A stretch of 64,000 nt of DNA from an uncultured Mycoplasmatota bacterium (GTDB taxonomy: Bacteria > Bacillota_I > Bacilli_A > RF39 > UBA660). The notes beneath the pieces were generated by a model. That model had not been told where the DNA came from, did not search any database, and was given only the letters and a program-made list of their open reading frames with translations. Positions 3,787 through 20,587 of the stretch are shown piece after piece (within the stretch, counting starts at the first letter, position 1; the number at the start of each line of letters is the position of its first letter). Made by a program: the position numbers and the translations under genes. The stretch lies in the NCBI GenBank assembly GCA_900552495.1, contig URZY01000003.1, positions 110,627 through 174,626 of the forward strand, written 5' to 3'.

Positions 3787-5724
3787 CTATCTATTTTTTA
3801 CATAATCGCAAATTATTTTAACTACATTTTCATTTCCGATTTTAGAGTCTATACATAAATCATAATTGTTTTTATCTCCCCAGATTTTATTAGATATAAC
3901 ACTATAATAATTTGATCTTAATTTATTGGAATTTAAGATATGACTTTTAGCCTGTTTTTCATTATCCCCATAATTTTTCATGATGTTTTTGATTTTGTAG
4001 TCCATTGGAGCATATATAAATATTTTTATTAAATTTTTATTTTCTTTTAATATGTAGTCAGCAGCTCTACCTATAATTACAGCATTACCGTTATTAGCAA
4101 TATTTTTAATTACTTTGGATTGATTTATTATCGCTTCCTTGCTTGCATCAAGTGATAGAAAATGCTCATAAAGTTCTTCATTAGAATAATTAGAATTAAT
4201 TATATTATTTTTAAGAGCATAATCTTTTATTTCTTCTTTATCATAGAATGGTATATTTAATTCCTTCGCAACGAGTTTTCCGATCTCTTTTCCATTTGTT
4301 CCATGCTCTCTTGATATGGATATGATTAAATTACTTTTAATTTTATCAGGCTTAATTACTTTAATCTTTTTATTATATGAATCTTTTAAAATAATTAGTG
4401 AAATAATTGCCGTTGAGACTTCTGCGATTGGAAAAGTCCACCAAACAAGTTCAGTAACATTTTCTAATTTTGTAAATAAAAATGCTATTGGAAATACAAA
4501 AATCACTAATCTTAGTAAAGAAATTATTAATGGCCTTAAGGCATATCTTATTGATTGTAAAATTCCTTGAACGGCTACTGATATACCCATAAAGACAAAA
4601 CCAGTACTAGAAATTTTTAACGCTGTAGTACAAACGTTAATTATTTCTTTGGTAGTTCCGCCTGTAAGTCCAAATAGTTTTGCAAGTGGATAGGCAAATA
4701 TTTCAAATAATATACTTATTATCAAGGTTACTATTATAGTGTCAATAATTCCATACTTAATACAATCATCTATTCTTTTTTTATCCTGCATACCATAATT
4801 AAACGATAATATTGAAATAATTGTATTTGATAATCCAAATGCAGAAAATAAAGCAATTTGTTGGATTTTATAATAAATACCAAATGAACTAATTAGAACG
4901 GTTTGATTTGCTTGAGCTAAACCTAATATTGCATTCATTCCAGCCATCATTACAGCAAGTAGTGCTTGCATTAAGGCTGCCGAAATACCAATACTATAGA
5001 TTCCTTTAATTAAATTGATATCAGGGTTTATGTATTTTATGTCACTATTAATTTCATTATTCTTTTTATAATGAAAATACATTGCAATAAATAATGAGAT
5101 AAATTGACCAATTACAGTGGCCCAAGCGGCTCCTGCAACACCCATTTTAAAAGGATAAATAAAAAGATAATCCAATATTATATTTGCAACTGCTCCAGAT
5201 ATCTGAGAAATGGTCGATAACATTGTTTTTCCTGTTGCTTGTAAGAATCTTTCGTATACAGTATAACCTATTGATCCCAATGATAAGCAAGTGCAAATTC
5301 TTAAATAAGTTGTTCCCATGTCTATAATTTCTTTATCATTAGTAAATAGAGAGATAAATTGCTTAGAATAAAATAGTCCAAATAATAAAAATATAATATA
5401 GATACAAATACTTAAAAATATTCCGTTACCGGCTATCTTATTTACTTTCTCAGTATCGTTTTCCCCTAAGCTTTTAGATAGTAAAGCATTTAGACCAACA
5501 CCCGTTCCAACACCAATAGCTATAATCATTATTTGGATTGGAAAAGCATAAGTTAAAGCTTGATTTGCAATAGCACCCTTTGCTCCCATATTAGCAACAA
5601 AAATACTATCAATAACATTATAGAGTGCTTGTAAAACCATAGATACAATCATTGGTAAACCCATTTTTAAAATCAGTTTATTCATTGAAGCTATGGCCAT
5701 TTTATTTTGTTGTTCTTCCTTCAT
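3787..5724 (-). CDS. MATE family efflux transporter (~450 aa, 12 TM) fused to a C-terminal cytidylate-kinase-like (Cytidylate_kin2 / AAA-like) soluble domain
   Basis: N-terminal polytopic membrane region typical of MatE/NorM; C-terminal ~190 aa begins LIISISREHGTNGKEIGKLVAKELNIPFYDKEEI, matching the GxxGSGGxxIgkxLAexLgipyyDkeli signature of the cytidylate kinase-like family; RBS ggagg upstream. Confidence 0.7.
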   Translation of the reverse strand: MKEEQQNKMAIASMNKLILKMGLPMIVSMVLQALYNVIDSIFVANMGAKGAIANQALTYAFPIQIMIIAIGVGTGVGLNALLSKSLGENDTEKVNKIAGNGIFLSICIYIIFLLFGLFYSKQFISLFTNDKEIIDMGTTYLRICTCLSLGSIGYTVYERFLQATGKTMLSTISQISGAVANIILDYLFIYPFKMGVAGAAWATVIGQFISLFIAMYFHYKKNNEINSDIKYINPDINLIKGIYSIGISAALMQALLAVMMAGMNAILGLAQANQTVLISSFGIYYKIQQIALFSAFGLSNTIISILSFNYGMQDKKRIDDCIKYGIIDTIIVTLIISILFEIFAYPLAKLFGLTGGTTKEIINVCTTALKISSTGFVFMGISVAVQGILQSIRYALRPLIISLLRLVIFVFPIAFLFTKLENVTELVWWTFPIAEVSTAIISLIILKDSYNKKIKVIKPDKIKSNLIISISREHGTNGKEIGKLVAKELNIPFYDKEEIKDYALKNNIINSNYSNEELYEHFLSLDASKEAIINQSKVIKNIANNGNAVIIGRAADYILKENKNLIKIFIYAPMDYKIKNIMKNYGDNEKQAKSHILNSNKLRSNYYSVISNKIWGDKNNYDLCIDSKIGNENVVKIICDYVKNR

Positions 5725-6678: not shown

Positions 6679-7227
6679 TTAAATATTTACTTTGATATCA
6701 CTTCTTTCAGTTGGCTTGTTTTCATACATTTTACTTTTTTGGAAACCAAAAAGTCTAGCAACTAATCCACTTGGAAAAGTAATAAGTTTTTCATTATAAT
6801 TTCTTACCGTTGCATTATAATATTTTCTAGCATTAGCTATATCTTCTTCAACAGTTGTTATTTGTTGACTTAAGTCCAAAAAATTTGAATTAGCTTTTAG
6901 ATCTGGGTAATTTTCAGCAACACCTATAATTTTGGTTAGTTCTTTAGATAATTGAGCATCAGAAGAAAGCTTATTTTGCATATTCGTTTTATCATAGGAA
7001 CTTAGGCGGTATTTTGTTAAATTTTCAATTAATTTCTTTTCATGTTTCATGTACCCTTTTACGGTCTCTACGACATTAGGAATTAATGACCATCTTTTCT
7101 TTAAGTAAACATCCATAGTTGCATAGCTTTCCTCTACTCTAATTTTTAATTTTACTAGTTTGTTGTATGTTAGTATTACGTATATTATTAATAATAATAT
7201 TAGTAGAAAAATAATATATTTGAACAT
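6679..7227 (-). CDS. lemA: LemA family membrane protein
   Basis: Start taken at internal MFKYIIFLL (RBS ggagg 7 nt upstream); N-terminal TM then ...YNKLVKLKIRVEESYATMDVYLKKRWSLIPNVVETVKGYMKHEK...YPDLKANSNFLDLSQQITTVEEDIANARKYYNATVRNYNEKLITFPS, classic LemA; the track ORF's extra N-terminal 95 codons read through the neighbour's 3' end in another frame. Confidence 0.85.
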   Translation of the reverse strand: MFKYIIFLLILLLIIYVILTYNKLVKLKIRVEESYATMDVYLKKRWSLIPNVVETVKGYMKHEKKLIENLTKYRLSSYDKTNMQNKLSSDAQLSKELTKIIGVAENYPDLKANSNFLDLSQQITTVEEDIANARKYYNATVRNYNEKLITFPSGLVARLFGFQKSKMYENKPTERSDIKVNI

Positions 7228-7279
7228 ATAATATACCTCCTTATTTTTTTCTAACTTAGAAAAAGGAAAAAGTCTTTTC

Positions 7280-9598
7280 CTACCAAGAACCTCCGCCTCC
7301 GCCGCCGGAGCCACCGCCAGAAATTCCTCCGCCAGTTGATGATGAACTCGTTGAAGAGGAAATAGATGACACCGATGATAGTGTTGCATCAGAGATTGTT
7401 TTATTAAGGCGGTGACCAAATGATACAACATTAAAATTGGTTGAAGTTTTATACCAGCTTGGTTCCTGAAGAAGGATTGTCTCAAATTTATTAATCCATT
7501 TTCTTGAAACACCTAAGACATAGGTATATGGAAGAATATCATAAAAATAATTCGGATTTTCTTCTACTAATGATTCTAATTTCTCTTTTTCAGCAGTTTC
7601 TAAAAAAGTCTTAAATCCTTGGATTTGACCGAGCATTTCGTTACCATAAGGGGTTCTTTTGGGCATATTATTTAGACAAATTATCATTCCAGTAAGACAT
7701 ATTACTGAGAAAAGTAAGGCTGAAGCATACAGAAAATTAGCAGTTATAGCGGTTGAAAGCGGTAAAACAATGGAAATCATGGCAAAATGAAGAATAATAA
7801 ATATTAGCAACCCGATGCGAATTGACCTTGTTAGTTTTGGTGAAGTGGCAATAACGAGAAACGGTAAGTACATAGCTGATATTATAAGCGTAATAGCAAC
7901 TTCCTCCCAAGTAGAATATAAATATGTTGGGACACCAATTGAAAAAAAGTATGTTAATACAATTAAAACTATTATTAACCAATTATATCGATTAGTTCCT
8001 TTAACAAATATTTTTTTAGTATTCTTTTTAGCATTAATATTGCGTTTTATTTTGCCAATTGTCGTATGAAATTTGTACTGTAAATCTGTAGAAGTCACAA
8101 CGTTAGACTCGCTGGCTAAAACTTTTTCTCTTTCGCTTAAATTGTTAGTTATCCTCTTTCCGGTACGCTTACATTTAAATAGTCCTTCTAAGAACATTTT
8201 TTCATGAATATTGGTTCCATCATAATCCTTTATTTTTCTAATTGAAAAATCGTTCCGAGAATATTTACTAAATTTCTCTTCTTCAATTTCAATATATCCT
8301 TTATTAGCTAGGTATACAAGTAATGAGATAATGTCTCTTTCAGAGGCTTCTCCTTTGTAGTTCAAAGCAATATCTAGACTATTTAAGTTTTGAGGAGGAT
8401 AAAAATTAATTACTTCCGTATACTTGTCATCCTTACCATATTTGTTCCAAATGGCTATACAGATGATTAAACAAACTAAAGGAATAAAGAAAAGTAAATA
8501 ATCTATTCCTTGTAGAAATGGTGATAATTCAAAGTATCCTTCTTCTAATTCTAGACGAAAAGTTAACGCCTCCCCTTTTTCAAGCGGTTTCTTATAAGTA
8601 CCAAATATTTTATTACCAGTTCGTTCCCAAGTAATTGAATCTGATGCAAGGCTCTCTCTTTTTCCGGCTGCAAAGCCTAATTTTTCCGTTGGGAAATCTT
8701 TTGGCATAGTTATTTCAAAAGTAATATAGCCAATAGCAGTATCCCAGTCTGAACCAATAAGGTTCAAATAGACTTCATCAAAATTTTTTGATTGGTCTTT
8801 GCCTAGATCATAATGATAAGAAATTACATATTCTTGTTGTCCCGTTACTAATCTATTTTTATCACCTATTTTTATTTGATAATTATTGTCACTTTTGGTA
8901 ATGGCAAATTTTTCGTTTACTTTTATATTTGAGATTTTAGCATAATTTTTGGCAGTTGTCCCATCTTGTCTAATAATATTATTGATAGTTGGTATATTAC
9001 GATATATCCCATGACGTTCTTCATTAAAATAAGCCGTAATAGTCTCTGTTATGTCATAGGTATTATCGGAATTAACATTTACTTTTATATCATAAGTATC
9101 AATTAAATATGGATAGGTGGCATAACGCGATTGTTGGTGCAATGTATTGATAGGCGCCGAAGGTGCTAAGGGAGTCTCTTTTACAGTTAAAATATAGTAT
9201 TTTAGGTCAGAAACATTATAGCCTGATGGCAGTGAAGTATACTCAATCATATCGTTATAAGTAGTTGGATAATTATCAACCAAAGACAAAGGGGTTGTTT
9301 TCTCAATGATTAAGCTATGTTCTTGATTATAAAAAGAGGCAATTATTTCAACGTTCTTAGAAAAGGTACTTTTATTTTTTACAATTCCCGTTAGACCAAA
9401 TGACGGAGTCGTTGTAGTGGCATTATTATTAATAAATGTTATATTTTCAACAACAATATTATCACTTACCACTTGTGTGCTTTCGGATATAGGATGATAG
9501 TCTTTCTCTATCGAAAGTGCCCAAACTGAGACTGGTTCTAAAAATAGTGTTAGGATTATTAATGCTACTCCTAATATTTTTTTAATTATATCTTTCAT
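7280..9598 (-). CDS. DUF2207-family membrane protein (LemA partner) with signal peptide, large ectodomain, TM cluster and Gly/Ser-rich C-terminal tail
   Basis: 772 aa; N-terminal signal-like helix, ~350-aa extracytoplasmic region, 4-5 TM helices, C-terminal SSISSSTSSSSTGGGISGGGSGGGGGGSW; the conserved LemA-DUF2207 gene pair is established. Confidence 0.7.
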   Translation of the reverse strand: MKDIIKKILGVALIILTLFLEPVSVWALSIEKDYHPISESTQVVSDNIVVENITFINNNATTTTPSFGLTGIVKNKSTFSKNVEIIASFYNQEHSLIIEKTTPLSLVDNYPTTYNDMIEYTSLPSGYNVSDLKYYILTVKETPLAPSAPINTLHQQSRYATYPYLIDTYDIKVNVNSDNTYDITETITAYFNEERHGIYRNIPTINNIIRQDGTTAKNYAKISNIKVNEKFAITKSDNNYQIKIGDKNRLVTGQQEYVISYHYDLGKDQSKNFDEVYLNLIGSDWDTAIGYITFEITMPKDFPTEKLGFAAGKRESLASDSITWERTGNKIFGTYKKPLEKGEALTFRLELEEGYFELSPFLQGIDYLLFFIPLVCLIICIAIWNKYGKDDKYTEVINFYPPQNLNSLDIALNYKGEASERDIISLLVYLANKGYIEIEEEKFSKYSRNDFSIRKIKDYDGTNIHEKMFLEGLFKCKRTGKRITNNLSEREKVLASESNVVTSTDLQYKFHTTIGKIKRNINAKKNTKKIFVKGTNRYNWLIIVLIVLTYFFSIGVPTYLYSTWEEVAITLIISAMYLPFLVIATSPKLTRSIRIGLLIFIILHFAMISIVLPLSTAITANFLYASALLFSVICLTGMIICLNNMPKRTPYGNEMLGQIQGFKTFLETAEKEKLESLVEENPNYFYDILPYTYVLGVSRKWINKFETILLQEPSWYKTSTNFNVVSFGHRLNKTISDATLSSVSSISSSTSSSSTGGGISGGGSGGGGGGSW

Positions 9599-9712: not shown

Positions 9713-10510
9713 TTGAATATATATAAATCATTAAATAATATTACTAAATATATTGATGATAATTTAGATAAAGAAATTAGTTATGAAACAATGGCTAAAA
9801 TTATTGGAGTAAATATTTTTACATTACAAAAAATCTTTTCCCTCCTTACTAATGTATCACTTGCGGACTATATTAGAAAAAGAAAATTATTAGTAGCAGG
9901 GGCTGATATATACACGAACAAATTAAAGGTAATGGAGGCAGCTATTAAATACGGATATGAAAGTGCAACTTCTTTCTCACGCGCCTTTGAACTTTTCCAT
10001 AAAGTTAAGCCTAGTTTGGTTACTAAACAGTCAACATTAGTAGAATTTCCAAGAATTGTTTTTGATGAAAATCAAAAAATAACAAGTACAATGGCTTATG
10101 AAATAGTTGAGTTAAGTGAATTGAATTTATTTGGAAAATATATAACTACTACTAATTTGACTATTGAAAATGATGCACCTAACTTTTTTCAAGATTTTAG
10201 AAAAAAATATGAGGAAGAATATGGAGAACCACAATATGGGATGATTACTTATTCTAATCCTTGCCGTGAAGAATGTGAACAATATTACGTTCTTTATGAT
10301 AAGGAAATTACTGGCTTTGAAAAAGTTGATATTACTAGTGGTAAGTGGCTACGTTTTAGAATCAATTCACAAGAAGCTACTGATATTAGAGATATGTCCC
10401 AAAAATTTTATATAGATTTTTTGCCAAGCTGTAAATACAATTTACGGGATATTTATGAGTTAGAATATTATCATGATGGGGTTACAGATTTTTTAGTTCC
10501 TATTTGTTAA
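9713..10510 (+). CDS. AraC/XylS-family transcriptional regulator with C-terminal GyrI-like effector-binding domain; TTG start
   Basis: N-terminal AraC HTH (…SLADYIRKRKLLVAGADI…YGYESATSFSRAF…) then ~150 aa GyrI-like region; RBS aggtga 6 nt before TTG. Confidence 0.7.
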   Translation: MNIYKSLNNITKYIDDNLDKEISYETMAKIIGVNIFTLQKIFSLLTNVSLADYIRKRKLLVAGADIYTNKLKVMEAAIKYGYESATSFSRAFELFHKVKPSLVTKQSTLVEFPRIVFDENQKITSTMAYEIVELSELNLFGKYITTTNLTIENDAPNFFQDFRKKYEEEYGEPQYGMITYSNPCREECEQYYVLYDKEITGFEKVDITSGKWLRFRINSQEATDIRDMSQKFYIDFLPSCKYNLRDIYELEYYHDGVTDFLVPIC

Positions 10511-10593
10511 ACTGACAAATCTTGGATAGAAAAAGTCAGTTTTTTTATGGAATAATTTTATATACTTCTATTATTACTGGGGGTATTTAGGGA

Positions 10594-12441
10594 ATGATTA
10601 CTTATGAAGTACTACTTGCTCAAAAAAAGATAGAAGCTGCTGATTGGAAGCTGTTTGTTGAGGCCATTGCCAATTATGTTGGCTATTTTAAGACTTTTAA
10701 ATTAATAATTGTTTACCAAGAAAATACCATTAGATTTTTTGTCAGATGTAGGTGCTTACTACCAATTACATTTAATGGATTAAATGTCTTCTATTTAAAA
10801 AAGTTTAGTAATTTTGAAATACCAAAATGTAAAACAGGATTATTTTTTCATGAAACAAAGATTAATTCTTGTATTGATATTATTGATTACTGTTTCAATA
10901 AATTAGGAGCAAAATTTAAAGGGTTGGTGTTTAATTTTGTTAAAGTTACCAATAAACTAATAATAAGTAAAAAAAATTTATATTTAAAAAAGCATTATTC
11001 ATTAAAAAAGTATTCTTTATTTTGGAGTAATAGTTATGATCTTTTAACCATCAATTTTGATAAGAATAAACGCTTTTTTTATAAGAGGATTGGCAAATAT
11101 TTAGATATTTCTAAGATTTTACCTCTACTTAATCGTGATAAAACTTTGTGTACAATGAAGATAGACACTTTCCCCTATCTACAAGGGGATTTTTTTCTAA
11201 GACAAAGTAGTTATGATTTTTGTAAACACTCATTAGTAATTGGTGCTAGTGGATCGGGAAAATCTAAGTTTATTAGTAGTTTTATAAAAAATATTTATTT
11301 ATTAAATAAATCAAGTAAGAATTATAAAGTTATTATTATCGATCCTCATGCAAATATTGAAAATGATATTGGTGGATTGGGACAAATAATAGACTTTAAA
11401 GAGCCTTTTTCTAGCATTGATTTGTTTTTAAATAAAGGTCATGATGTGGTAAGTGGTGTGGAACTGTTATTAGAACTGTTAAAAGAATTAATTAAGGATC
11501 AATATAATTCTAAATTAGAAAGAGTGCTTCGACATGCATTATACATACTACTAATTAATGAAAATTTTTCTTTTAGAAGTCTAAAGTCTCTTCTTTTAGA
11601 TTTAGAATATCGTAATAATATGATTAACCTTTCAAAAGAAAAGCTACCAGATAGTGTTTTAAGTTTCTTTCTAAATGATTTTAATGAATTAAAGACTAAA
11701 GCCTATGGTGAAGCAATTGCGCCTATTATATCATTCGTTGATGAGATGGAAATATTACCGACCTTCGGTGAAAGTAGGAATGTTAGTAATTTGGAAAATG
11801 TTATCAGAAATAACTTCTTAACTATTTTTTCTTTAGATAAAATTTATTTAGGCAATAAAATTACCAAGGCAATTGCAGGACTTATTATGCAACAGTTATT
11901 AATGTTAGTTCAAGGCCAAGCTTTTTCAGAACAAATCATTTTAGTGATTGATGAGATAGCAGTAATCGAAAGTCCTATTTTAACTAGATATTTAGCCGAG
12001 GCAAGAAAATATAATTTAGCACTTATTTTAGCCGGGCAATATTTTAATCAAATATCGGATAATCTAAAAATGGCTATTTTTTCTAATGTCATTAATTATT
12101 ATATTTTCCGTGTTTCTAAAATGGATGCTAGTGTTTTGGTAGAAAATCTTAATATGAAAATTCCATTAGATAATAGTAAAGATACTAAAATTAAATTATT
12201 GACAGAGCTTAATAACAGAGAGTTCATTGTTAGAGTGGCAAATAATGGGATTTTAATTTCAGCATTTAAAGCTAAAACTTTAGATTTTAAAAAAATTCCA
12301 CGGAAAAAGATGAAAAAACCTAAGGATCTAGGAGTCCTAATAAGTAAACAAGAAAACAAAAATACTTTTGAGATAACAAGTTCTATTAAAGTAAAAGAAG
12401 TATTGAAAAAAAATTCAACTGGTAGGAAGGTGGTTAAATAA
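10594..12441 (+). CDS. HerA/FtsK-superfamily (DUF87 / AAA_10-like) P-loop NTPase with an uncharacterised ~210-aa N-terminal domain
   Basis: Walker A LVIGASGSGKSKF; Walker B QIILVIDEIAVIES followed by AEARKYNLALILAGQYFNQI, matching the HerA/VirB4/FtsK post-Walker-B signature (DEAH...eGRKyG...tQrP); no TM segments. Confidence 0.6.
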   Translation: MITYEVLLAQKKIEAADWKLFVEAIANYVGYFKTFKLIIVYQENTIRFFVRCRCLLPITFNGLNVFYLKKFSNFEIPKCKTGLFFHETKINSCIDIIDYCFNKLGAKFKGLVFNFVKVTNKLIISKKNLYLKKHYSLKKYSLFWSNSYDLLTINFDKNKRFFYKRIGKYLDISKILPLLNRDKTLCTMKIDTFPYLQGDFFLRQSSYDFCKHSLVIGASGSGKSKFISSFIKNIYLLNKSSKNYKVIIIDPHANIENDIGGLGQIIDFKEPFSSIDLFLNKGHDVVSGVELLLELLKELIKDQYNSKLERVLRHALYILLINENFSFRSLKSLLLDLEYRNNMINLSKEKLPDSVLSFFLNDFNELKTKAYGEAIAPIISFVDEMEILPTFGESRNVSNLENVIRNNFLTIFSLDKIYLGNKITKAIAGLIMQQLLMLVQGQAFSEQIILVIDEIAVIESPILTRYLAEARKYNLALILAGQYFNQISDNLKMAIFSNVINYYIFRVSKMDASVLVENLNMKIPLDNSKDTKIKLLTELNNREFIVRVANNGILISAFKAKTLDFKKIPRKKMKKPKDLGVLISKQENKNTFEITSSIKVKEVLKKNSTGRKVVK

Positions 12442-13139
12442 TGAAAGATCGGGAATACCTAGAAATAATCAATAAAATTTTTAGAGCCGTTTTTGATAAA
12501 GATAATCTATTTAGTTTAGAAGGAATTTGGGAGAACTTTGCTTTTGATGTAAAATTACCTAAAATGGTAAATGATTCAACTACTGGTGAAATCACATGGG
12601 CTGATGCTATTAATAATGGTAAATTTATTACCTTAAAAAATATGGAAGCAAAGGATATAAAAAATGGTTGGATGGTAGAAAAAAAAGATATTAATAATTT
12701 GGATGAGCTATTAAAAATTTGGGAGATGATTAATTTAACAACTACTGAGCGAGTATTTGATTCAGTTAATGTTAGTAAAAGCGATACTATATATCGTTCG
12801 AGCAATGTTTACAGATCGACCGGTTGCAGTGATTCTAAGAATATTGTATTTTGTGATTCGTGCAGTAATTCTGAGTTTTTATTGGCTTCGCAAAGATCTA
12901 TTGGTTGTAATTTTTGTATTAGAACAGATGATTCAAAAGATTGTAGCAATAGTTATAGTATTATCTGTTCTAATAAAATAAGTAATAGTTTATTTATTCA
13001 AGATTGCTTTAATCTTTATGAATGCATGTTTTGTTGCCATATTGCTAATAAAAAATTTTGTATTGCCAATATGCAGTTTGAAGAAACCGAATATTATAAG
13101 ATTAAGAAGACTATCGTAGACTGGATTTTGAATCAATAA
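12441..13139 (+). CDS. Cysteine-rich repeat protein (12 Cys in the last ~110 aa; ~12-residue S/C-x-N-hydrophobic repeats; three CxxC pairs), translationally coupled to the HerA-like ATPase
   Basis: 232 aa; start ATG overlaps the ATPase stop (TAATG); C-terminal half CSDSKNIVFCDSCSNSEFLL..GCNFCIRTDDSKDCSNSYSIICSNKISNSLFIQDCFNLYECMFCCHIANKKFCIAN; family not recognised. Confidence 0.5.
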   Translation: MKDREYLEIINKIFRAVFDKDNLFSLEGIWENFAFDVKLPKMVNDSTTGEITWADAINNGKFITLKNMEAKDIKNGWMVEKKDINNLDELLKIWEMINLTTTERVFDSVNVSKSDTIYRSSNVYRSTGCSDSKNIVFCDSCSNSEFLLASQRSIGCNFCIRTDDSKDCSNSYSIICSNKISNSLFIQDCFNLYECMFCCHIANKKFCIANMQFEETEYYKIKKTIVDWILNQ

Positions 13140-13157: not shown

Positions 13158-14081
13158 CTACATTTGACCTTTAAATTTATACAGTTTTTTTGTAGCTGGA
13201 GAATAGTCTACTCGGGATAAGTCTTGTGCTGTTTTTTCCGCTAAGTCTTTGGATAGAAACATAGCTTGATAAGTAAGATAAAAATCATTAATAATTGGAT
13301 CATCATAAGCTGACGGTAATTCTATCACTTCGTGATAATATGGGTAGCTGCTCTCTTTTATGACGCTATCTAGTTCGGTATTTGGGGCTAGATGAATTAA
13401 ACTATTTTGATTATGGTAAGATGTCGTAGTACGTCCATGACAATAGGAATATTTATCATGAATTAGTGGTAATGCAAGAGCTGCTTCAGAGAAAGTTGTT
13501 TCTAAATAGGTAGCAGCTGTGTTTGTATCATAACCACTTAAAATTTCAAAGACTTTATTAGAATTGAGGCTGTACTCTTTTTTTGTTTTTAAGATTTCTT
13601 TAATTATTGAAAGATCTAAATCTGTGTAGTAGCTTAAGAGGATACTCATTGGTATTAAGGTGGCAGCTAAGGATATGAAACTATCCTCTTTAGGAAGGGT
13701 GGTTTTATATTGCAGTGAAGTAATATTTGTTTCTAAAGCAGGATTAGATGATAATAGAAATTTATTTAAATTATTTTCAAAAGCCATTTGAACACCTTTA
13801 TTATTACCTCCATAACTACAAGCCAAGACATTATCATAGCCATTAATATTTTTATAGTTTAACGTTCGTGGTTCTTCGTGACTAGTAATAATATTATTTT
13901 TAGCGGCTAAGATTTTGGCGGCATAAGTACTCACAACACTTGATCCGCCAACTCCAACACTGATAGTTGGAGAAGTTATTTTTTTTAGATGGGAACTTAT
14001 CCGTTCTAAATCCGTATTTTCTAGAGAGTCTAAAACTCTCTCTTCTAGCATATTAAAATTATCATACATTGTTGGTTTCAT
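13158..14081 (-). CDS. Uncharacterised protein with SIS-like (sugar-isomerase/phosphosugar-binding-type) N-terminal motifs
   Basis: 307 aa; ISVGVGGSSVVSTYAAKIL and NVLACSYGGNNKGV resemble the two SIS-domain signature segments; assignment tentative. Confidence 0.35.
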   Translation of the reverse strand: MKPTMYDNFNMLEERVLDSLENTDLERISSHLKKITSPTISVGVGGSSVVSTYAAKILAAKNNIITSHEEPRTLNYKNINGYDNVLACSYGGNNKGVQMAFENNLNKFLLSSNPALETNITSLQYKTTLPKEDSFISLAATLIPMSILLSYYTDLDLSIIKEILKTKKEYSLNSNKVFEILSGYDTNTAATYLETTFSEAALALPLIHDKYSYCHGRTTTSYHNQNSLIHLAPNTELDSVIKESSYPYYHEVIELPSAYDDPIINDFYLTYQAMFLSKDLAEKTAQDLSRVDYSPATKKLYKFKGQM

Positions 14082-14139
14082 AAAAAAACACTTCCTTTCA
14101 AGTTCAATATAGCACTTGATGAGGAAGTATTTCGGCTAC

Positions 14140-14742
14140 TTAGAAAGTTTCTTCTAAGAGTTCACAATTACTTATTCGTTTTAGTTCAAAATGGCGAATA
14201 TCATTTTTCATTAGACAAAAAGCTGCTACATACCACCCATCTTGAAATAAGAACATTTCAGCAGGACAAATCACACGATTATTTTCTCCTTTATTATATG
14301 AATAGTAGGTTATTTTGACTTTTTTTCGTTCTTTAATAGCACGTGTTAAAAGATTATATTTACGCTGAACTGTCTCGGTTAAATTTAACTCTTTGGCTTC
14401 TTTCTTGCTGCCAATATAAACACCTTGAATTTTATCTTTTAGCAAAAGTAATTGCTCCTTTTGCTTAGAATCTGGTTCTGCTTGAATATATTTTTCGAGA
14501 AGCTCATAATCTTGTTTTTTAAATTTTCTGGCTGGGAGACGAATTGATTGATTTAAGACATAACCACCATAAGGTCCCATTATAGTGTCAATGTAGATTC
14601 CTGCCTTTTCAAGTTCTTCTTTGTAGGAACGGACCATGCGTGGAGAAACTTCTAATTTTTCGGCTAATTCAGTGATTGTGTATTTTCGTCCGGTTTGAAG
14701 ATAATCAATTAATAATAAAACATTACTTAATTTTGACATCAC
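14140..14742 (-). CDS. HTH + WYL-domain transcriptional regulator
   Basis: 200 aa; N-terminal DeoR/HTH_11-like helix (TITELAEKLEVSPRMVRSYKEELEKAGI); C-terminal KVKITYYSYNKGENNRVICPAEMFLFQDGWYVAAFC...IRHFELKRI has the W-Y-[LV] and R-x-F-x-x-x-RI hallmarks of the WYL domain. Confidence 0.65.
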   Translation of the reverse strand: MMSKLSNVLLLIDYLQTGRKYTITELAEKLEVSPRMVRSYKEELEKAGIYIDTIMGPYGGYVLNQSIRLPARKFKKQDYELLEKYIQAEPDSKQKEQLLLLKDKIQGVYIGSKKEAKELNLTETVQRKYNLLTRAIKERKKVKITYYSYNKGENNRVICPAEMFLFQDGWYVAAFCLMKNDIRHFELKRISNCELLEETF

Positions 14743-14807
14743 ATTACTCCTTTGTATGTATTATATCAAAAAAAAGAAAAAGTTTAGTATTTTCATACTA
14801 AACTTTA

Positions 14808-15278
14808 CTACTTACAAGTTGCTCCGGCTTCTTCCATATCAGAAATAGCGCGATCAAAGCTTTTATCAACACCGGTTAAGTCCATACCGATTTTCTTTAG
14901 AACTTCTGGGTCTGCTTTAGTAATATCTGCTTTAACTTCAACTGTCATTTGATCATCTATATCAACGATAATTTCAAGTCCTTCATAAGTATCACTATCA
15001 AGTCCTAAGTTCTTTAGCATTGTTGATTTAATAGTTTCTTTTTGTGTATCATTTAGAGTTGAAAGTGTATCAACACCAAATAGTGAATTATTGAAAACCA
15101 TTTTTAATTCCATTTTATCAACTTCATTATTAGTTGCGGAAAAAACAAAAGTTTGATCAATTCCATTTACTTCACCCATTGTACATGTTTTTGTTTCAAC
15201 TTTTGAACCAGTCATAGCACAACCACTTACCATAAAAGCTAAAACTATTGTTAATGCTAAAATAGATAATTTTCTCAT
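14808..15278 (-). CDS. Small secreted lipoprotein (YehR/DUF1307-like)
   Basis: Lipobox LAFMVSGC after signal peptide; 156 aa, acidic. Confidence 0.5.
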   Translation of the reverse strand: MRKLSILALTIVLAFMVSGCAMTGSKVETKTCTMGEVNGIDQTFVFSATNNEVDKMELKMVFNNSLFGVDTLSTLNDTQKETIKSTMLKNLGLDSDTYEGLEIIVDIDDQMTVEVKADITKADPEVLKKIGMDLTGVDKSFDRAISDMEEAGATCK

Positions 15279-15330: not shown

Positions 15331-16544
15331 TTATTGATGATAAAAATATTTGATAGTAAATGTTGTTGTACTTTCATCTGAGGTTACTTCTAAACGCCCA
15401 TTATCTCTTTCTATAATTGTTTTAGCTAAGGCTAAACCAATACCAATGCTATCGGAGGAAGCATTTTCACCTTTATAGAATCGTTTAAAAATGTGAGGCA
15501 AATCTTTTTTAGAAATACTAGAACCATAATTGGTAATTTTTATATCAGAATAGACATTATTTTCGCTGGTTTCCAGTAAAATTTCACTTGAGTTTTTAGA
15601 ATGTTCTAAAGCATTTTTTAAAATATTAGTAATGGCTTCTACTTGCCACATAAAATCACAATTTATCTCCTTTGTTGTTGTATAGTGCTTAATAAAGCGA
15701 ACATTTTTTAAGTCAGATAAACTCGTTAGTTTTTCAATGGCGGTATCAACTAGTTTATTAATAGTTGTTTTTTCTTGGCTAAAATTAATTGTATTTGCAT
15801 CAAATTTTGATAGTTTTAAAAGAGATTGTACAAGAAAATTAATATTTATAATGTCCCTTTTGATATCTTTTAAAAACTCTTCTCTAATCTTCTCATCAAT
15901 ATCAGGATTGTCAAGTAAATTGTCAAGCATAATTAAAATTGAGGTTAATGGAGTTTTTAATTGATGAGAAATATCGGATAAAGAATTCTTCAAGTTTATT
16001 TTATCTTTTTTAGAATTTTCTGCTTGCTCTTTTAACATTACAGTTGTCTTATAAATTTCATTTTTTAGAATTGATAATTCATCTTCGGAAATGCTATCAA
16101 TATCAATCCTATAGTTTTTATTATTAATTTGTTCAATGTAAGTAGTTATAGAGGCTAACTCTTTATCTTTCTTATGATTATAGCTTACGAAAAAGTAAAG
16201 AATTAAGATGACTGTTGATAGCAAAATGACAAGATTTAAAATTAGGGTTTTTTGGAACGTTTTGGTGTTAGTTGGAATAATGAGTTCTAATTCAGTTAAG
16301 CCATAGGTTTGAAGAGTCTTAGAAGTTTTATTATTAGATGTTAATATCTTATATAAGTCTTCTTTTGTTAGATTTGGATAAGAGTCTTCTAATTGGGAAA
16401 GAATAGCATTTATTTTTTTATTGTATGTTGACTGATAAGTGTTATACTCATAAATATTCAATACTGTTAAACAGCAAATTGAAAATATAATTAGAATAAC
16501 TATTTTAGATAGAACATTTTTTAAATTTACTTTATTTGTCATCT
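15331..16544 (-). CDS. Sensor histidine kinase (two TM helices, ~80-aa extracytoplasmic loop, HisKA + HATPase_c)
   Basis: H-box SHQLKTPLTSI; N/G boxes (...LALAKTIIERDNGRLEV...); start taken at the internal ATG overlapping the RR stop by 11 nt. Confidence 0.8.
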
Positions 16545-17191
16545 TTATCAATCCTATAACCAATGCCTTTGATAGTAGTAATAATATCTGTGGCAAGTTT
16601 TTCTCTAATTCTTCTTAAATAAACGGTTACCGTGTGATCGTCAACATCATTACCAGTCCACTCCCAAATCTTATCAAGAATGGTTCCTCTTCTTACAACT
16701 TTATTGACATTCTCAAAAAGAAGATATAATATTTTTAACTCTAAAGAAGTAAGTTCAACCTTATTATTATTTTTCTTAACAGTCATTTTATCTAAATCAA
16801 AACTTATATCCTTTACTTGAATAATAGTGTTTTGCTTTGTGCGCAATATGATTCTATTTATTCTGGCTAGTAATTCTTTTGTAGAAAATGGTTTAGTTAT
16901 ATAATCTTCTGCGCCAAAATTTAATCCTTCTACAATAGTTTCTTCGTCATCTTGAGCGGTTAAAAAAATAGTAGGGATATTTAGAGCCATTATTATATTT
17001 TTATATAATTCTAGACCATTGCCATCTGGAAGAGCAATGTCTAATATTATGATATTAGGTCTATTGGTACTTAAGTAATCTTTGGTTTCTTTGACCGTGG
17101 TTATTGCGGTAAGATGATAATTATTTATTTCAAAAGCATAAGAGAGCCCCTTAATAATAGAAAGACTATCTTCTACTAGAAGTATATTCAT
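16532..17191 (-). CDS. OmpR/PhoB-family response regulator
   Basis: Receiver domain (ILLVEDS...IIILDIALPDGNG) plus winged-helix output (TVTVYLRRIREKL). Confidence 0.9.
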   Translation of the reverse strand: MNILLVEDSLSIIKGLSYAFEINNYHLTAITTVKETKDYLSTNRPNIIILDIALPDGNGLELYKNIIMALNIPTIFLTAQDDEETIVEGLNFGAEDYITKPFSTKELLARINRIILRTKQNTIIQVKDISFDLDKMTVKKNNNKVELTSLELKILYLLFENVNKVVRRGTILDKIWEWTGNDVDDHTVTVYLRRIREKLATDIITTIKGIGYRIDKDDK

Positions 17192-17244
17192 AAAACCATT
17201 CCTTTCTTTTTTATTATAGCATAAAAAGGAGATAACTCTCCTTT

Positions 17245-19926
17245 TTAAATATTTTCATTTCTAATGGTTTCAATTGTGTTTTGTTTATCTATTTTATTGA
17301 TTGAATATTTCATAATAAAGAATAGTAATAGGAAAACAACTAAAACTGAAATAATTATAGCAATATATGGAGGACGGAATTTTACAATAACATCTCCATC
17401 ACTTAGTAATGTATATATCAAATATGAAAGAAGTGTTCCTATTGGGATACTAAATATCAAGGCTTTTGTACCATAGAAAATACTTTCTAAACGAATCATC
17501 CGATTGAATTCTTTTTTGGTCATACCAATACTTTTTAGCATAGCAAATTCTCTTCTTCTAAGATTCATATTGGTAGTGATAGTATTAAAAATATTGGTTA
17601 TTCCAATTAAAGCAATAACAGTAATGAAACCATATAGGAAAATACTTACAAGTGTAATTAGTGAAGTCATCTGCTTAACACTTTCGTTGATATTCTTAAT
17701 GTAAATGTTAGTATTATCAAAGATTTCCTTTAAGGAAGCCGTTGTTTTATCAGGATTAGATGAATCGATATAAATTACTTCACTGTGATTTTGAGGAATA
17801 AGATTTTTAGCAGCGTCTTTATGCATAATTATAATGGCATCATAATTGACATCAATTATACCAGCTGGTACAATATCCGCAGTTTTACCAATTTCAATAG
17901 TTAATTCACCAACTGTTTTTTCTGTATCAGTATTAGCATCATATTCAAAGGCCTGAAGCGAAATCTTATCGCCAGCTTTGTAGGCATATTTTTCAAGTTC
18001 AAAAGCTTTTGTTTTATTATCATCGAGCATATAAGTCTCGTAAACAGTATTTAAAAGAATGGCCTTATTCTTTTTATCTTTATCGTTGTAATTAATTTCT
18101 TTGGTATAACGTGAATAAGTTTCATCATCTAAGGCAGCATATAAAATACTTCCCTTTTTGCTTGAATCCGAAATTAAATCCTCATAATATGACTTATTAT
18201 ATTTCTTTGTGGCCGCGAGATATTCTTTTGAATAATTAGGTTTTTTGACATTTAAATAGCCTTCAGTTGCATAAGTTATTCTTTTAATATTTGGAAGATC
18301 ATAGATTTCAGTTACGTATTCTGATAGTCCAATATTATCTTCAAAATTATAACGGACACTGACATTGTAATTTAGAGTGGCATAGTTAACTTTAATTAAA
18401 TCATAGGCAAAAGAGATAAAGGCCGATAAGGCAATAAAGACAGTGACACAAACAGCTATACTAACGACAGTGGCACGGTATTTTTTCTTACTACGCTCGA
18501 GATTCTTATGCGCAATTTCACCACCAATTCCGAAAGTACGTTTTATTAATTTTGATGTTTTAATTTTTTTCTTTTTGTTAATCTTTATATCGTCACTATT
18601 TCTAATAGCATTAATTGGCGTTATTTTGCTAGCGCGACGGGCACTTTTCCTTGCTGACAAAAGTAATGTTATTAAACTTAAGATACTGGCAAAGATTATT
18701 GCTAAATAAGATAATTTAAATACTAATACTAAATTCATTACATCCTTTAAGAAAACATTAGTAATAATAATTAAAATATAGGCAGCTAAGTTACCACATA
18801 ATAAGCCTATTGGGATACCTAAAAGTCCAAGTAGTAAAGCTTCTGTGTAGACATTTTTCTTTATTTGCTTTCTTGTTGCGCCAATACTTGCAAGCATTCC
18901 ATATTGTTTAGTTTTTTCTGTTATCGAAATAGCAAAACTATTATGAATACAAAAAACTGAAGTAACAATTATAATTCCGATTACAACCATAGCAGCATTT
19001 CTTAATGCTATTAGAAAGGAATCTTTAGTAGAACCAGATTCAAGAGTGACAACTTGACTATTACTGGCATAACTGTATTTAGCCTTTTCAATTTCTTTTA
19101 GAGTATTTTTATATTCTGCATTGGAAGTATAATCATAATTTTTACAGGTTTTTTCATACTCTGTTGGATTTATACCTAGAATTCCGGCTGTTGTTTTGCA
19201 ATGACTTAAAACACCTGCTTGAGTATATCTCGCATAAACACTAACATCCCCAGTAATATTCTTTTCGTCCAAATAAGTTATTATAGAATACCCTGGAGCG
19301 CTATATGGCTCAAATGTTAAAGGAGGTCTTTCTATAATTCCTACTACTTTATAGGTTTTTGTAGTTGTATTTTCAATTTTTTCATTATTTTCTTCAATAT
19401 AAGGATTATGTTGATTAGCAACACTTCCATCAATGGTACGGGTTCCAACGGCAATTGTTAATTCATCACCAACATTGATTTTTACTTGACCATTAGTACG
19501 AAGATGATTAGAAATAATAATTTCATTTTCATTTTGAGGAAGTTTTCCTTTTATTAACTTAATACCTAGATTCTTTAGAGCTTTCTTACTAAATGCGTTA
19601 ACATGAAGATAAGGTTTAGCCTCATTTTTTATTTCTTTTAGTTTAGCATAACCTAGTGGCTTTACGAGAGAAATATCTTCTATTTTCTTGTTTAATTTAA
19701 AATCATTAAGGTTTTTGGAAGGAACGTCGTAAAAAACATAGTGATAATTTCCACGCTCTTTAAGTTCAAAACGCAGAAGTGACTCTTGGGCACTAAAAAA
19801 CATACTAGCAACAGCTGTTATTAAGGCTGTTGAAAGAATTATTCCAATTACTGTAACAATGGTACGTTTCTTATTTAGTTTTAAGTTTTTTATTGTAAGT
19901 TTATTTAGCAAATTCATATTATTCAC
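17245..19926 (-). CDS. FtsX-family ABC transporter permease with two FtsX modules and large extracellular domains (BceB/MacB-like)
   Basis: 893 aa; repeated 4-TM FtsX-like blocks separated by large hydrophilic domains; overlaps the ATPase gene by 8 nt. Confidence 0.8.
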   Translation of the reverse strand: MNNMNLLNKLTIKNLKLNKKRTIVTVIGIILSTALITAVASMFFSAQESLLRFELKERGNYHYVFYDVPSKNLNDFKLNKKIEDISLVKPLGYAKLKEIKNEAKPYLHVNAFSKKALKNLGIKLIKGKLPQNENEIIISNHLRTNGQVKINVGDELTIAVGTRTIDGSVANQHNPYIEENNEKIENTTTKTYKVVGIIERPPLTFEPYSAPGYSIITYLDEKNITGDVSVYARYTQAGVLSHCKTTAGILGINPTEYEKTCKNYDYTSNAEYKNTLKEIEKAKYSYASNSQVVTLESGSTKDSFLIALRNAAMVVIGIIIVTSVFCIHNSFAISITEKTKQYGMLASIGATRKQIKKNVYTEALLLGLLGIPIGLLCGNLAAYILIIITNVFLKDVMNLVLVFKLSYLAIIFASILSLITLLLSARKSARRASKITPINAIRNSDDIKINKKKKIKTSKLIKRTFGIGGEIAHKNLERSKKKYRATVVSIAVCVTVFIALSAFISFAYDLIKVNYATLNYNVSVRYNFEDNIGLSEYVTEIYDLPNIKRITYATEGYLNVKKPNYSKEYLAATKKYNKSYYEDLISDSSKKGSILYAALDDETYSRYTKEINYNDKDKKNKAILLNTVYETYMLDDNKTKAFELEKYAYKAGDKISLQAFEYDANTDTEKTVGELTIEIGKTADIVPAGIIDVNYDAIIIMHKDAAKNLIPQNHSEVIYIDSSNPDKTTASLKEIFDNTNIYIKNINESVKQMTSLITLVSIFLYGFITVIALIGITNIFNTITTNMNLRRREFAMLKSIGMTKKEFNRMIRLESIFYGTKALIFSIPIGTLLSYLIYTLLSDGDVIVKFRPPYIAIIISVLVVFLLLFFIMKYSINKIDKQNTIETIRNENI

Positions 19927-20587
19927 CTACAATCTTACCATCTTCAATATGAATAATTCGATCAGCGTTTTTGGCAATTTCCATATTGTGAGTAATCATA
20001 ATAATTGTTTGTTTGTATTTTTTATTAGATAATTTTAATAATTCTACTATTTCATCACTGGATTTAGAATCTAGATTTCCTGTTGGTTCATCAGCCAAGA
20101 CAATGGTTGGGTTGGTTATTAAAGCTCTTCCAATAGAAGTTCTTTGTTGTTGTCCACCTGATAGTTCGTTAGGAAGATGTCCTCGCCTACTTTCTAAGCC
20201 TAAAGTTCTGATTAGAGAATCAAGATTTTCCTTATTTACTTCACGATTATCAAGACTTAATGGAAGAGTAATATTTTCTTCAACATTAAGAATAGGAATT
20301 AAATTGTAAAACTGATAAATTAAGCCTACCTGTCGGCGACGAAAAATAGCTAGTTTATCATCATCAAAGTTGTAAATATCTTTACCATCAATGTAGACTT
20401 TTCCACTAGTAGGACGATCTACTCCGCCAATCAAATGAAGAAGAGTTGATTTTCCACTACCACTTGCTCCTACTATAGCAACAAATTCACCTTTTTCCAC
20501 CGAAAAAGATACATTGTTGATGGCTGTTACCTTAGTAGAACCTTTGCCATATACTTTTGTTAATTTTTCAACTTTTAATATTTCCAT
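19919..20587 (-). CDS. ABC transporter ATP-binding protein (BceA/MacB-NBD-like)
   Basis: Walker A GASGSGKSTLL, signature LSGGQQQR, Walker B LADEPTGNLD. Confidence 0.9.
   Translation of the reverse strand: MEILKVEKLTKVYGKGSTKVTAINNVSFSVEKGEFVAIVGASGSGKSTLLHLIGGVDRPTSGKVYIDGKDIYNFDDDKLAIFRRRQVGLIYQFYNLIPILNVEENITLPLSLDNREVNKENLDSLIRTLGLESRRGHLPNELSGGQQQRTSIGRALITNPTIVLADEPTGNLDSKSSDEIVELLKLSNKKYKQTIIMITHNMEIAKNADRIIHIEDGKIVGE

Follow-up and report, generated by a model that had tools for sequence, protein, structure and literature searches.

A WYL regulator gene, an unannotated double-SIS protein gene and the conserved leader element between them: a probable phosphosugar enzyme module of uncultured gut Bacilli

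Most of what is known about WYL-domain regulators concerns the control of phage defence and of DNA damage, and their genes often flank defence systems (PMC9122601, PMC9122588). The ligands described for WYL domains are single-stranded DNA (ssDNA; PMC11662680, PMC11804915, PMC12041258), single-stranded RNA (ssRNA; PMC6547453) and cyclic di-GMP (c-di-GMP), the latter for MbpR, a Bacillota factor with a helix-turn-helix (HTH) and a WYL domain that has a non-defence target (PMC11880434). Here we analyse a WYL regulator gene of an uncultured Mycoplasmatota bacterium that lies directly upstream of a gene for a SIS-fold protein of 307 amino acids (aa), together with a conserved 61-nucleotide (nt) element between the two. 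The genes are located on a stretch of 64,000 nt of contig URZY01000003.1 (assembly GCA_900552495.1), the whole of which is referred to as the window. In our best explanation, to which we give a probability of roughly 60%, the pair forms a phosphosugar enzyme module under WYL control in the core chromosome of uncultured gut Bacilli, with a housekeeping rather than a defence function.

The original prediction for this locus, made from the sequence alone, had described two open reading frames (ORFs) of 307 and 200 aa, and both are present as described (Table 1). The regulator is likely to be 199 aa long and to start with the ATG at 14739 instead of the GTG listed one codon earlier, because the Shine-Dalgarno (SD) spacing fits this start, the homologues are all of this length and 63 contigs carry an identical protein of 199 aa (P0271). 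The quoted sequence motifs were also confirmed, with VGVGGSS at residues 42-48 and CSYGGNNKG at residues 88-96 of the SIS protein, and DGWYVAAFC and IRHFELKRI in the WYL domain. About 25 distinct loci (labelled L001 onwards) were compared, and a protein-based metagenome scan gave 14 loci; most loci come from one lineage, and the counts are not independent events. Relatives of the pair stem nearly all from uncultured gut metagenome-assembled genomes labelled 'Bacilli bacterium' or Candidatus Coprovivens. In 19 of the approximately 25 distinct loci, the WYL gene immediately precedes the SIS gene, from which it is separated by about 58 nt, and in five more (L004, L018, L029, L041, L027) it is found within 3.6 kb. 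L014 could not be scored for the WYL gene, as its contig runs out 196 nt upstream of the element. The arrangement is also found in two distant loci: in L043 (SIS part 26% identical) a gene for a 212-aa WYL protein is separated by a 61-nt spacer from that of a PfkB-SIS fusion, and L046 (29% identical) has a WYL protein of 158 aa, a 54-nt spacer, a SIS protein of 373 aa and Ham1. The SIS family occurs without a WYL gene in seven loci (L022, L023/33, L024, L035/36, L042, L044 and L047). Across the gut-Bacilli loci the WYL proteins are 65-81% identical, compared with 41-64% for the SIS partner, a level of conservation that is unlike that of fast-evolving defence genes.

The closest described counterparts of the 307-aa protein are the double-SIS enzymes, which include the isomerase domain of GlmS, NagB-II/GlmD, AgaS, FrlB/FraB and Lmo0035. 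GlmD/NagB-II is a glucosamine-6-phosphate deaminase and FrlB/FraB is a fructosamine-6-phosphate deglycase. Like these enzymes, the 307-aa protein is predicted to consist of two tandem SIS subdomains in about 300 aa. The AlphaFold (AF2) model, built with 38 homologues, has a mean predicted local distance difference test (pLDDT) score of 87.6 and a predicted template modelling (TM) score of 0.89. In a Foldseek search of the PDB with this model, the top 50 matches were all double-SIS proteins, with E-values of 3e-12 to 1e-8, TM-scores of 0.57-0.71 and a sequence identity of 10-16%. Leading matches were Lmo0035 (2aml), NagB-II (8eym), the GlmS isomerase domain (1mos, 1moq), FrlB (3eua) and AgaS-like proteins, with 2aml, 8eym and 1mos at E-values of about 1e-12 and TM-scores of 0.67-0.71. 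At the sequence level, the 307-aa protein has no match in Pfam or PADLOC, a scan of NCBIfam returned only TIGR02128, a model for archaeal PGI/PMI (E-value 0.003, residues 23-102), and phmmer as well as a narrow family profile gave chance matches only in the PDB. The family comprises 712 clusters in a 90% collection, unnamed or called 'hypothetical protein', and no Pfam domain is given for any listed member. An exhaustive profile search found 333 remote representatives at E <= 0.001, several of which are 640-670-aa fusions of an N-terminal PfkB kinase to a SIS-type domain; in four of five such fusions tested, Pfam SIS scored above the gathering cut-off (26.6-32.8 bits against 25). The profile of the widened family alignment (A2), which reaches down to about 24% identity, matched 2aml over the full length (1.1e-9), 3odp (1.9e-7) and FrlB 3eua (8.9e-7). 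The earlier label 'SIS-like' is thus right for both fold and profile, as judged by Foldseek, by Pfam SIS in remote members and by A2. Taken with the predicted structure, these results make the 307-aa protein a member of an unannotated double-SIS family and a probable phosphosugar enzyme of the isomerase, deaminase or deglycase type.

The original prediction had also stated that the protein has no recognisable catalytic residues, and this is not correct. In A2, the residues G45, S47, E132, E199, H208, K210, H215, G216 and Y301 are invariant, and the profile alignments match E199 and H215-G216 to the Glu and the His-Gly of two solved SIS proteins, 2aml and 3eua. A by-eye alignment to the GlmS motif KLKE...ELKHGP suggests that E199 and H215 may correspond to Glu488 and His504 of GlmS. 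An hhalign comparison of the family with a single GlmS isomerase sequence of E. coli was non-significant (Prob 0.35), with only a topologically sensible C-terminal stretch aligned, and it is in this alignment only that the DLSR of the family stands opposite the DQPR of GlmS. K298 is invariant in the family alignment A1 and not in A2. In the model, the loops G43-V-G45-G46-S47 and C88-S89-Y-[GS]-G92-x-N94, with the patterns GxGGS and S-x-[SG]-G, are candidate counterparts of the phosphate-binding loops of double-SIS enzymes (GxGxS after strand 1, SxSGxT after strand 3); they are placed at strand-to-helix turns, where those enzymes hold the sugar phosphate. The family differs from the known enzymes in its own invariant residues (E132, H208, K210, R217, Y301), in the replacement of Thr by Asn in the phosphate loop, in its low identity to them and the lack of a Pfam or NCBIfam match for the window protein, and in having no glutaminase domain.

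These residues also bear on the question of whether the SIS protein could be a non-catalytic phosphosugar sensor that modulates the WYL factor by protein contact, as a trans counterpart of the SIS domain of RpiR/MurR. Regulators of this group (HTH_6 + SIS) likewise combine a DNA-binding module with a phosphosugar-binding SIS module and control sugar-phosphate genes, profile A2 matches their SIS domains with E-values of 8e-6 to 2e-4, and the tight pairing with a DNA-binding protein and the non-canonical phosphate loop without an evident GlmS-type Lys would fit such a role. In RpiR/MurR, however, both modules reside on one polypeptide and the SIS domain is single and non-catalytic, whereas here the genes are separate, the SIS domain is double with catalytic-type residues, and the WYL domain would be the sensor of the regulator. 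Also against a sensor, a catalytic-type Glu and His-Gly are invariant in a family that diverges to about 24% identity, and the top structural matches are double-SIS proteins that are mostly characterised or annotated enzymes. The family moreover occurs without WYL in seven loci and is fused to the enzymes PfkB and Ham1, which fits a pathway enzyme. We therefore consider a pure sensor unlikely.

In relatives of the window locus, the SIS gene has recurrent enzyme partners. A gene for a Ham1-like XTP/dITP diphosphatase follows or overlaps the stop codon of the SIS gene in about 11 distinct loci, and the two are fused in one protein (P0124). A PfkB kinase gene comes after the SIS gene in L027 and L041, and PfkB is fused to the SIS domain in L042-44. 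Because the SIS protein is fused to, or its gene overlaps with, these partners, we favour an enzyme over a sensor. A pairing with a PfkB kinase is shared with FrlB, which goes with FrlD, whereas the Ham1-like pyrophosphatase distinguishes the family from the known double-SIS enzymes. No equivalog model names the PfkB partner, and the PfkB parts match rfaE_dom_I weakly. The partners Ham1 and PfkB suggest a salvage or sanitation of nucleotide-derived sugar phosphates and not ordinary carbohydrate catabolism. For the nucleotide-derived substrates this is guilt by association, based on Ham1 and PfkB and on the NT5C-like, HAD, HD and deoxyribosyltransferase-like proteins found in relatives. Most loci have no adjacent gene for a phosphotransferase system, a sugar ABC transporter or a glycosidase; L024, with a MalK-like ATPase, and L027 and L041, with PfkB kinases, are exceptions. 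In the Pfam search, the WYL protein reached 17 bits with HTH_DeoR against a cut-off of 21 and has no DeoRC domain. The original prediction had named DeoR-type regulation in a sugar-utilisation context as the case that would speak against it, and we find neither a DeoR-type regulator nor a classical sugar-utilisation operon; its second option, in which a regulator is paired with a protein of sugar-phosphate metabolism, comes near to the explanation favoured here.

Remote members of the family are encoded in further modules. In L047 (3583-7035), a nucleoside 2-deoxyribosyltransferase-like gene and a gene for a 606-aa HD-domain protein are followed by a SIS relative that is 24% identical and positive for Pfam SIS; this is another nucleotide-processing context for the family. 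In L042 (2953-7412) and L044 (4025-9010), the gene of an 808-824-aa protein with an N-terminal HAD domain (Hydrolase_3) overlaps that of a 660-669-aa PfkB-SIS fusion, and in L044 this module is preceded by a gene for a 183-aa NT5C-like protein. The L042 and L044 modules have no PADLOC match and no WYL gene, and could be defence-island cargo or a sugar-nucleotide pathway. The heptose pathway uses a SIS isomerase (GmhA), a PfkB kinase (HldA-HldE) and a HAD phosphatase (GmhB). The same three enzyme classes recur in the L042 and L044 modules, but GmhA has a single SIS domain and no part of the modules reaches an equivalog threshold.

The nearest described relatives of the regulator are PafBC, DriD, BrxR and CapW, with which it shares the domain order. 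The HTH-WYL assignment of the original prediction was confirmed with Pfam (WYL 1.1e-17 at residues 129-194, HTH_11 5e-8): a winged HTH at residues 1 to about 65 is followed by a helical linker and the WYL domain. The AF2 model (pLDDT 75) shows the same three parts, with the WYL domain as a barrel. With Foldseek, these four proteins were the best structural matches at E-values of 4e-10 to 2e-5, with targets of 266-330 aa, and the modelled WYL domain superposes on the DriD C-domain with a root-mean-square deviation of 1.8-2.1 A. The WYL domain also matches theirs by sequence, and, as with them, the putative target gene adjoins the regulator gene. In contrast to these proteins, the window protein has 199 aa and ends five residues past the WYL domain, at which point the model also ends with the last WYL strands, so that the WCX dimerisation domain is missing. 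Its gene is not beside a defence or DNA-damage gene set, and its apparent target is a phosphosugar enzyme. By its description, MbpR of Lactiplantibacillus plantarum resembles the window protein as a Bacillota HTH + WYL protein with a non-defence target, and its ligand is a nucleotide; this example shows that the range of WYL factors extends beyond defence and DNA damage. MbpR binds within the coding sequences of mucin-binding protein genes (PMC11880434), unlike the leader site proposed here, and no diguanylate cyclase context was seen. Motifs of the form TGnTAnnAT, equivalent to the extended -10-like sequence upstream of the window WYL gene, precede the WYL gene in most orthologous loci. The terminator-like hairpin after the upstream lipoprotein gene may separate the WYL unit from the genes upstream.

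The spacer between the two genes is much more strongly conserved than the genes. The element has the layout TAAGTAG(A/C)CNAAAT, ACTTCCT, 2 nt, P2, loop, P2', 0-3 nt, AGGAAGT, U6-8 and ATG. In the alignment of element sequences (A5), the mean column identity is 85% over 21 distinct loci, although their SIS proteins have only 41-64% identity to that of the window. It is present in every locus with a WYL gene and absent from all seven WYL-less loci. Where the WYL gene is displaced by a terminator of its own or by an intervening gene (L004, L018, L029, L041), the element stays with the SIS gene. Two insertions sit exactly between the WYL stop codon and the element, a gene for a 323-aa P-loop protein in L041 (3977-4948) and a PDDEXK_2 gene (Rpn/transposase-like) in L004 (7067-7936); this junction appears to tolerate or attract insertions while the element remains with the SIS gene. 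The original prediction had called the two genes co-operonic. This is correct only in part. The 58-nt spacer contains a conserved terminator-like hairpin with a U-tract and, in the loop, a promoter-like extended -10 sequence.

The hairpin of the window has a minimum free energy of -20.1 kcal/mol (z = -5.68), and per-sequence folding gave z-scores of -4 to -8.7 in 16 of 18 orthologous sequences. An alignment of the raw spacers with MAFFT and RNAalifold misaligned the 3' arm, and per-sequence folding and a hand-registered alignment were used instead. In the latter, 96% of cells are paired, compared with 88.6% in shuffles (0/500) and 34-55% in slid controls. Five hairpin pairs carry compensatory changes, and the covariation score was 0.254, compared with 0.114 for shuffled alignments (0/500). 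In 15 of 19 sequences, folding favours the sense over the antisense strand. The 3' arm of the outer stem (AGGAAG/GGAGG) is the SD sequence of the SIS gene, and the anti-SD and SD arms co-vary in distant loci: AAUUCC/GGAAUU in L034 and L041, AUUACC/GGUGAU in L027 and GCCAC/GUGGU in L046. The Rfam 15 covariance models gave no match on the element, with chance-level hits only (E >= 0.28).

Within the loop, A5 reveals the motif TGnTAnnnT, in which T32, A33 and T37 are invariant, TG is nearly so and positions 3-5 of the hexamer vary. The motif is also found in L043 (TGATACATT) and L046 (TGATACAAT), and it lies about as far from the ATG as do the WYL promoter and the promoter of the WYL-less L035 from theirs. 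This conservation profile makes the loop a candidate extended -10 promoter. The invariant box at the 5' end of the element is, as read from its sequence, a candidate operator for the WYL protein. The box occurs only once per locus, in the window and in all loci searched. A core xGAC-N-AWAT related to the box is present in L027, L043 and L046, which have diverged versions of the element. Two further assignments were dropped: an anti-terminator pairing of AAGUAG with CUACUU is not kept in the window or in L017, and TAGAC as a -35 hexamer would have a spacing to the -10-like motif of 18-22 bp, usually 21. The heptamer TAAGTAG also closes the upstream lipoprotein gene (window 14805-14811) and is found just before the SD sequence of the WYL gene (AAGTAGGTGAT) in several relatives (WYL leaders of L001, L007, L012, L013 and L016); it could reflect a favoured context for stop codons or a further regulator site.

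The compensatory changes raise the possibility that the leader acts as an RNA switch, in which a hairpin that terminates transcription and sequesters the SD sequence is opened by a small ligand, as in a riboswitch, or by the WYL protein when its WYL domain binds the single-stranded 5' box, and transcripts reading through from the WYL promoter would provide SIS expression. Changes of this kind occur in both stems, including ACUUCC/GGAAGU and the diverged anti-SD/SD pairs given above, the G-U pairs stabilise the sense strand in the 15 of 19 sequences, a U-tract follows the stem, and WYL domains are able to bind ssRNA or ssDNA (PMC6547453, PMC11662680). The loop, however, is conserved like a -10 element (TG, T1, A2 and T6 fixed, middle free) and not like an RNA loop. 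The element also persists where the WYL gene has its own terminator (L004, L018) or an intervening gene (L041), and stem P2 is decayed in L018, which fits a self-contained promoter, and a single hairpin of about 60 nt without an Rfam match leaves little room for an aptamer. We judge such a switch to be rather improbable.

Alternatively, the adjacency of the genes could be merely inherited, with the hairpin as the terminator of a WYL gene that regulates other genes, for example a DNA-damage regulon like those of PafBC and DriD. A hairpin with a U-tract fits an ordinary intrinsic terminator, the gene order may be inherited within the one lineage that supplies most loci, and the regulons governed by the solved WYL proteins closest to this one serve damage responses or defence. 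Against this, the linkage survives in L043 and L046, where the SIS parts are only 26-29% identical and the flanks are different, box and hairpin follow the SIS gene and not the WYL gene when the two are separated, and the element is missing wherever WYL is missing. Synteny without a functional link therefore seems very unlikely to us.

For the WYL-controlled enzyme module, which we prefer, the following mechanism can be proposed. Transcription from the WYL promoter would meet the hairpin and the U-tract, which would act as a terminator, and any read-through RNA would be poorly translated, as the 3' arm of the hairpin would mask the ribosome-binding site of the SIS gene. The SIS gene would instead be expressed from the extended -10 promoter in the loop, whose transcript would be without the masking arm. 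The WYL protein would bind the invariant box just upstream of this promoter and, by analogy with other WYL proteins, might switch it in response to a ligand of the WYL domain, either a nucleotide-like molecule or a single-stranded nucleic acid. The SIS enzyme would then act on a phosphosugar in a pathway shared with the Ham1-like NTP pyrophosphatase and the PfkB-family kinase. A more far-reaching proposal is that WYL-SIS-(Ham1/PfkB) constitutes an unrecognised pathway for the sanitation or salvage of nucleotide-derived sugar phosphates, in which the WYL protein senses a nucleotide-like damage signal via the overlapping terminator, anti-SD arm and promoter. This is speculative and, in our estimate, unlikely to be correct as a whole. 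In its boldest version, the WYL domain would bind the single-stranded leader itself, which would make the HTH-WYL protein a riboregulator.

A defence function had been considered in the original prediction, with an implied tie to the cassette that converges on the pair. According to this explanation, the WYL protein would be the regulator and the SIS-like protein the sensor or effector in an anti-phage or abortive-infection function shared with the HerA-like cassette. Besides the usual company of WYL genes, this is in agreement with the full-length match of the WYL protein to a generic PADLOC model of CRISPR-associated WYL proteins (PDLC01457, 1.4e-33), with the match of the 615-aa ATPase of the cassette to mad8 (9e-16) and, weakly, to HerA models, and with the two remote PfkB-SIS relatives beside restriction-modification genes, a NERD/UvrD helicase and a transposase. 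The 18-nt distance between the end of the 307-aa ORF and the stop (13139) of the convergent 232-aa ORF, which comes after the DUF87/HerA-like ATPase gene, was confirmed, and a simple promoter and terminator scan of this gap found nothing. The genes of the cassette have overlapping stops and starts, and the Cys-rich 232-aa protein has no family match. When the flanks were searched with tblastn and both proteins, however, the HerA-like/232-aa pair was found in only four of about 20 informative distinct loci, namely the window, L004 (= L005, L025), L020 and L029, and the implied tie to the SIS and WYL genes is not borne out. In the three relatives it lies about 3.4 kb upstream and is co-directional, and the window alone has the convergent arrangement. 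L004 has all three cassette genes, L020 has those for the ATPase and the 232-aa protein, and the stretch examined of L029 has that for the 232-aa protein only; from this recurrence we conclude that the cassette itself is a conserved unit of this lineage. The WYL-SIS pair, in turn, is single-copy, highly conserved and syntenic among housekeeping genes, and thus unlike defence genes, no PADLOC model exists for the 307-aa protein, and Ham1 and PfkB are the partners that recur. In orthologous loci the neighbours include genes for histidyl-tRNA synthetase, phosphoribosyl pyrophosphate (PRPP) synthetase, NUDIX, Macro, ADP-ribosylglycohydrolase and Ham1 proteins, and the order AdhE-APH-PRPP synthetase ... 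WYL-SIS ... LemA-DUF2207 is common to the window and L001. The convergent cassette is an unrelated neighbour of the pair, and we regard a defence function of the window locus as highly improbable.

Several points weigh against the enzyme module as we describe it. No curated family model matches the 307-aa protein directly. The phosphate loop of the window clade reads CSY[GS]GxN, with Asn for the Thr of the canonical SxSGxT, while remote relatives read SYSGKT, and the Schiff-base Lys603 of GlmS has no clear equivalent in the family. The window itself has neither Ham1 nor PfkB. PfkB-SIS genes are found beside NgoMIV-type restriction-modification genes in L042, and beside a NERD/UvrD helicase, a DNA methylase and a transposase in L044; judging by this gene content, some PfkB-SIS branches may have a defence-related role. 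With respect to the leader, the hairpin alignment is hand-registered and N-padded, and this registration favours pairing. Simple scans for terminators and promoters passed over the element, in the case of the terminator because of the internal loop and the 10-nt loop of the hairpin. The putative promoter, terminator and operator roles are all read from sequence patterns.

Table 1. Features of the WYL-SIS locus in the window (positions are those of the window).
Feature	Position	Strand	Description
HerA-like cassette	9713-13139	+	AraC/GyrI-like regulator (265 aa), DUF87/HerA-like ATPase (615 aa), Cys-rich 232-aa protein
SIS-fold protein gene	13158-14081	-	307 aa
61-nt element	14082-14142	-	between WYL stop codon and SIS ATG
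U-tract	14082-14088	-	after hairpin stem
Two-stem hairpin	14090-14128	-	P1 ACUUCCU/AGGAAGU, P2 UCAAGU/ACUUGA
Extended -10-like TGCTATATT	14106-14114	-	in hairpin loop; candidate SIS promoter
5' box TAAGTAG(A/C)CNAAAT	14129-14142	-	running into ACTTCCT; near-invariant columns 1-21 of A5; candidate WYL operator
WYL regulator gene	14140-14739	-	199 aa from the probable ATG; listed ORF 14140-14742, 200 aa, GTG start
Extended -10-like TGATATAAT	14760-14768	-	upstream of WYL gene; read from sequence
Terminator-like hairpin and T-run	14771-14806	-	after upstream lipoprotein gene; 12-bp stem AAAGUUUAGUAU/AUACUAAACUUU, then U-rich

The surroundings of the pair in the window contain several other features. 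Upstream, a Bce-like module on the reverse strand (15331-20587) encodes an ABC ATPase (222 aa), an FtsX-type permease (893 aa), a response regulator (219 aa) and a histidine kinase (421 aa), and is followed by a DUF1307-like lipoprotein gene (14808-15278) just upstream of the WYL gene; these were annotated by eye and with one weak Pfam match. L001 has no Bce-like module at the corresponding position. From the synteny with L001, the HerA cassette and the upstream Bce-like two-component/ABC module appear to be lineage-specific insertions. On the other side, a 645-aa ORF (3787-5724, reverse strand) is an unusual fusion of a MatE/MurJ-like transporter with a C-terminal cytidylate-kinase-like domain (Pfam 7.6e-40 and 7.8e-38). 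The DUF2207 membrane protein (7280-9598, reverse strand) has a long C-terminal tail rich in Ser and Gly (SSISSSTSSSSTGGGISGGGSGGGGGGSW). The listed LemA ORF (6679-7512) overlaps the 3' end of the DUF2207 gene, and the true LemA start is therefore probably further downstream.

A literature search found no paper linking WYL with SIS, and nothing relevant on SIS proteins in anti-phage functions or on PfkB-SIS fusions. What is new here is the double-SIS subfamily, the WCX-less WYL factor with an apparent target of metabolic type and the composite leader element. If our explanation is true, it adds to the WYL regulators a WCX-less factor that is dedicated to a phosphosugar enzyme. It also delimits an unannotated double-SIS family, whose fusions with PfkB and Ham1 point to an unknown nucleotide or sugar-phosphate housekeeping step in uncultured and little-known gut Bacilli. 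The 61-nt element would provide a concrete target for finding the operator and the ligand of the WYL protein, and the locus cautions against taking every WYL gene as a marker of defence.

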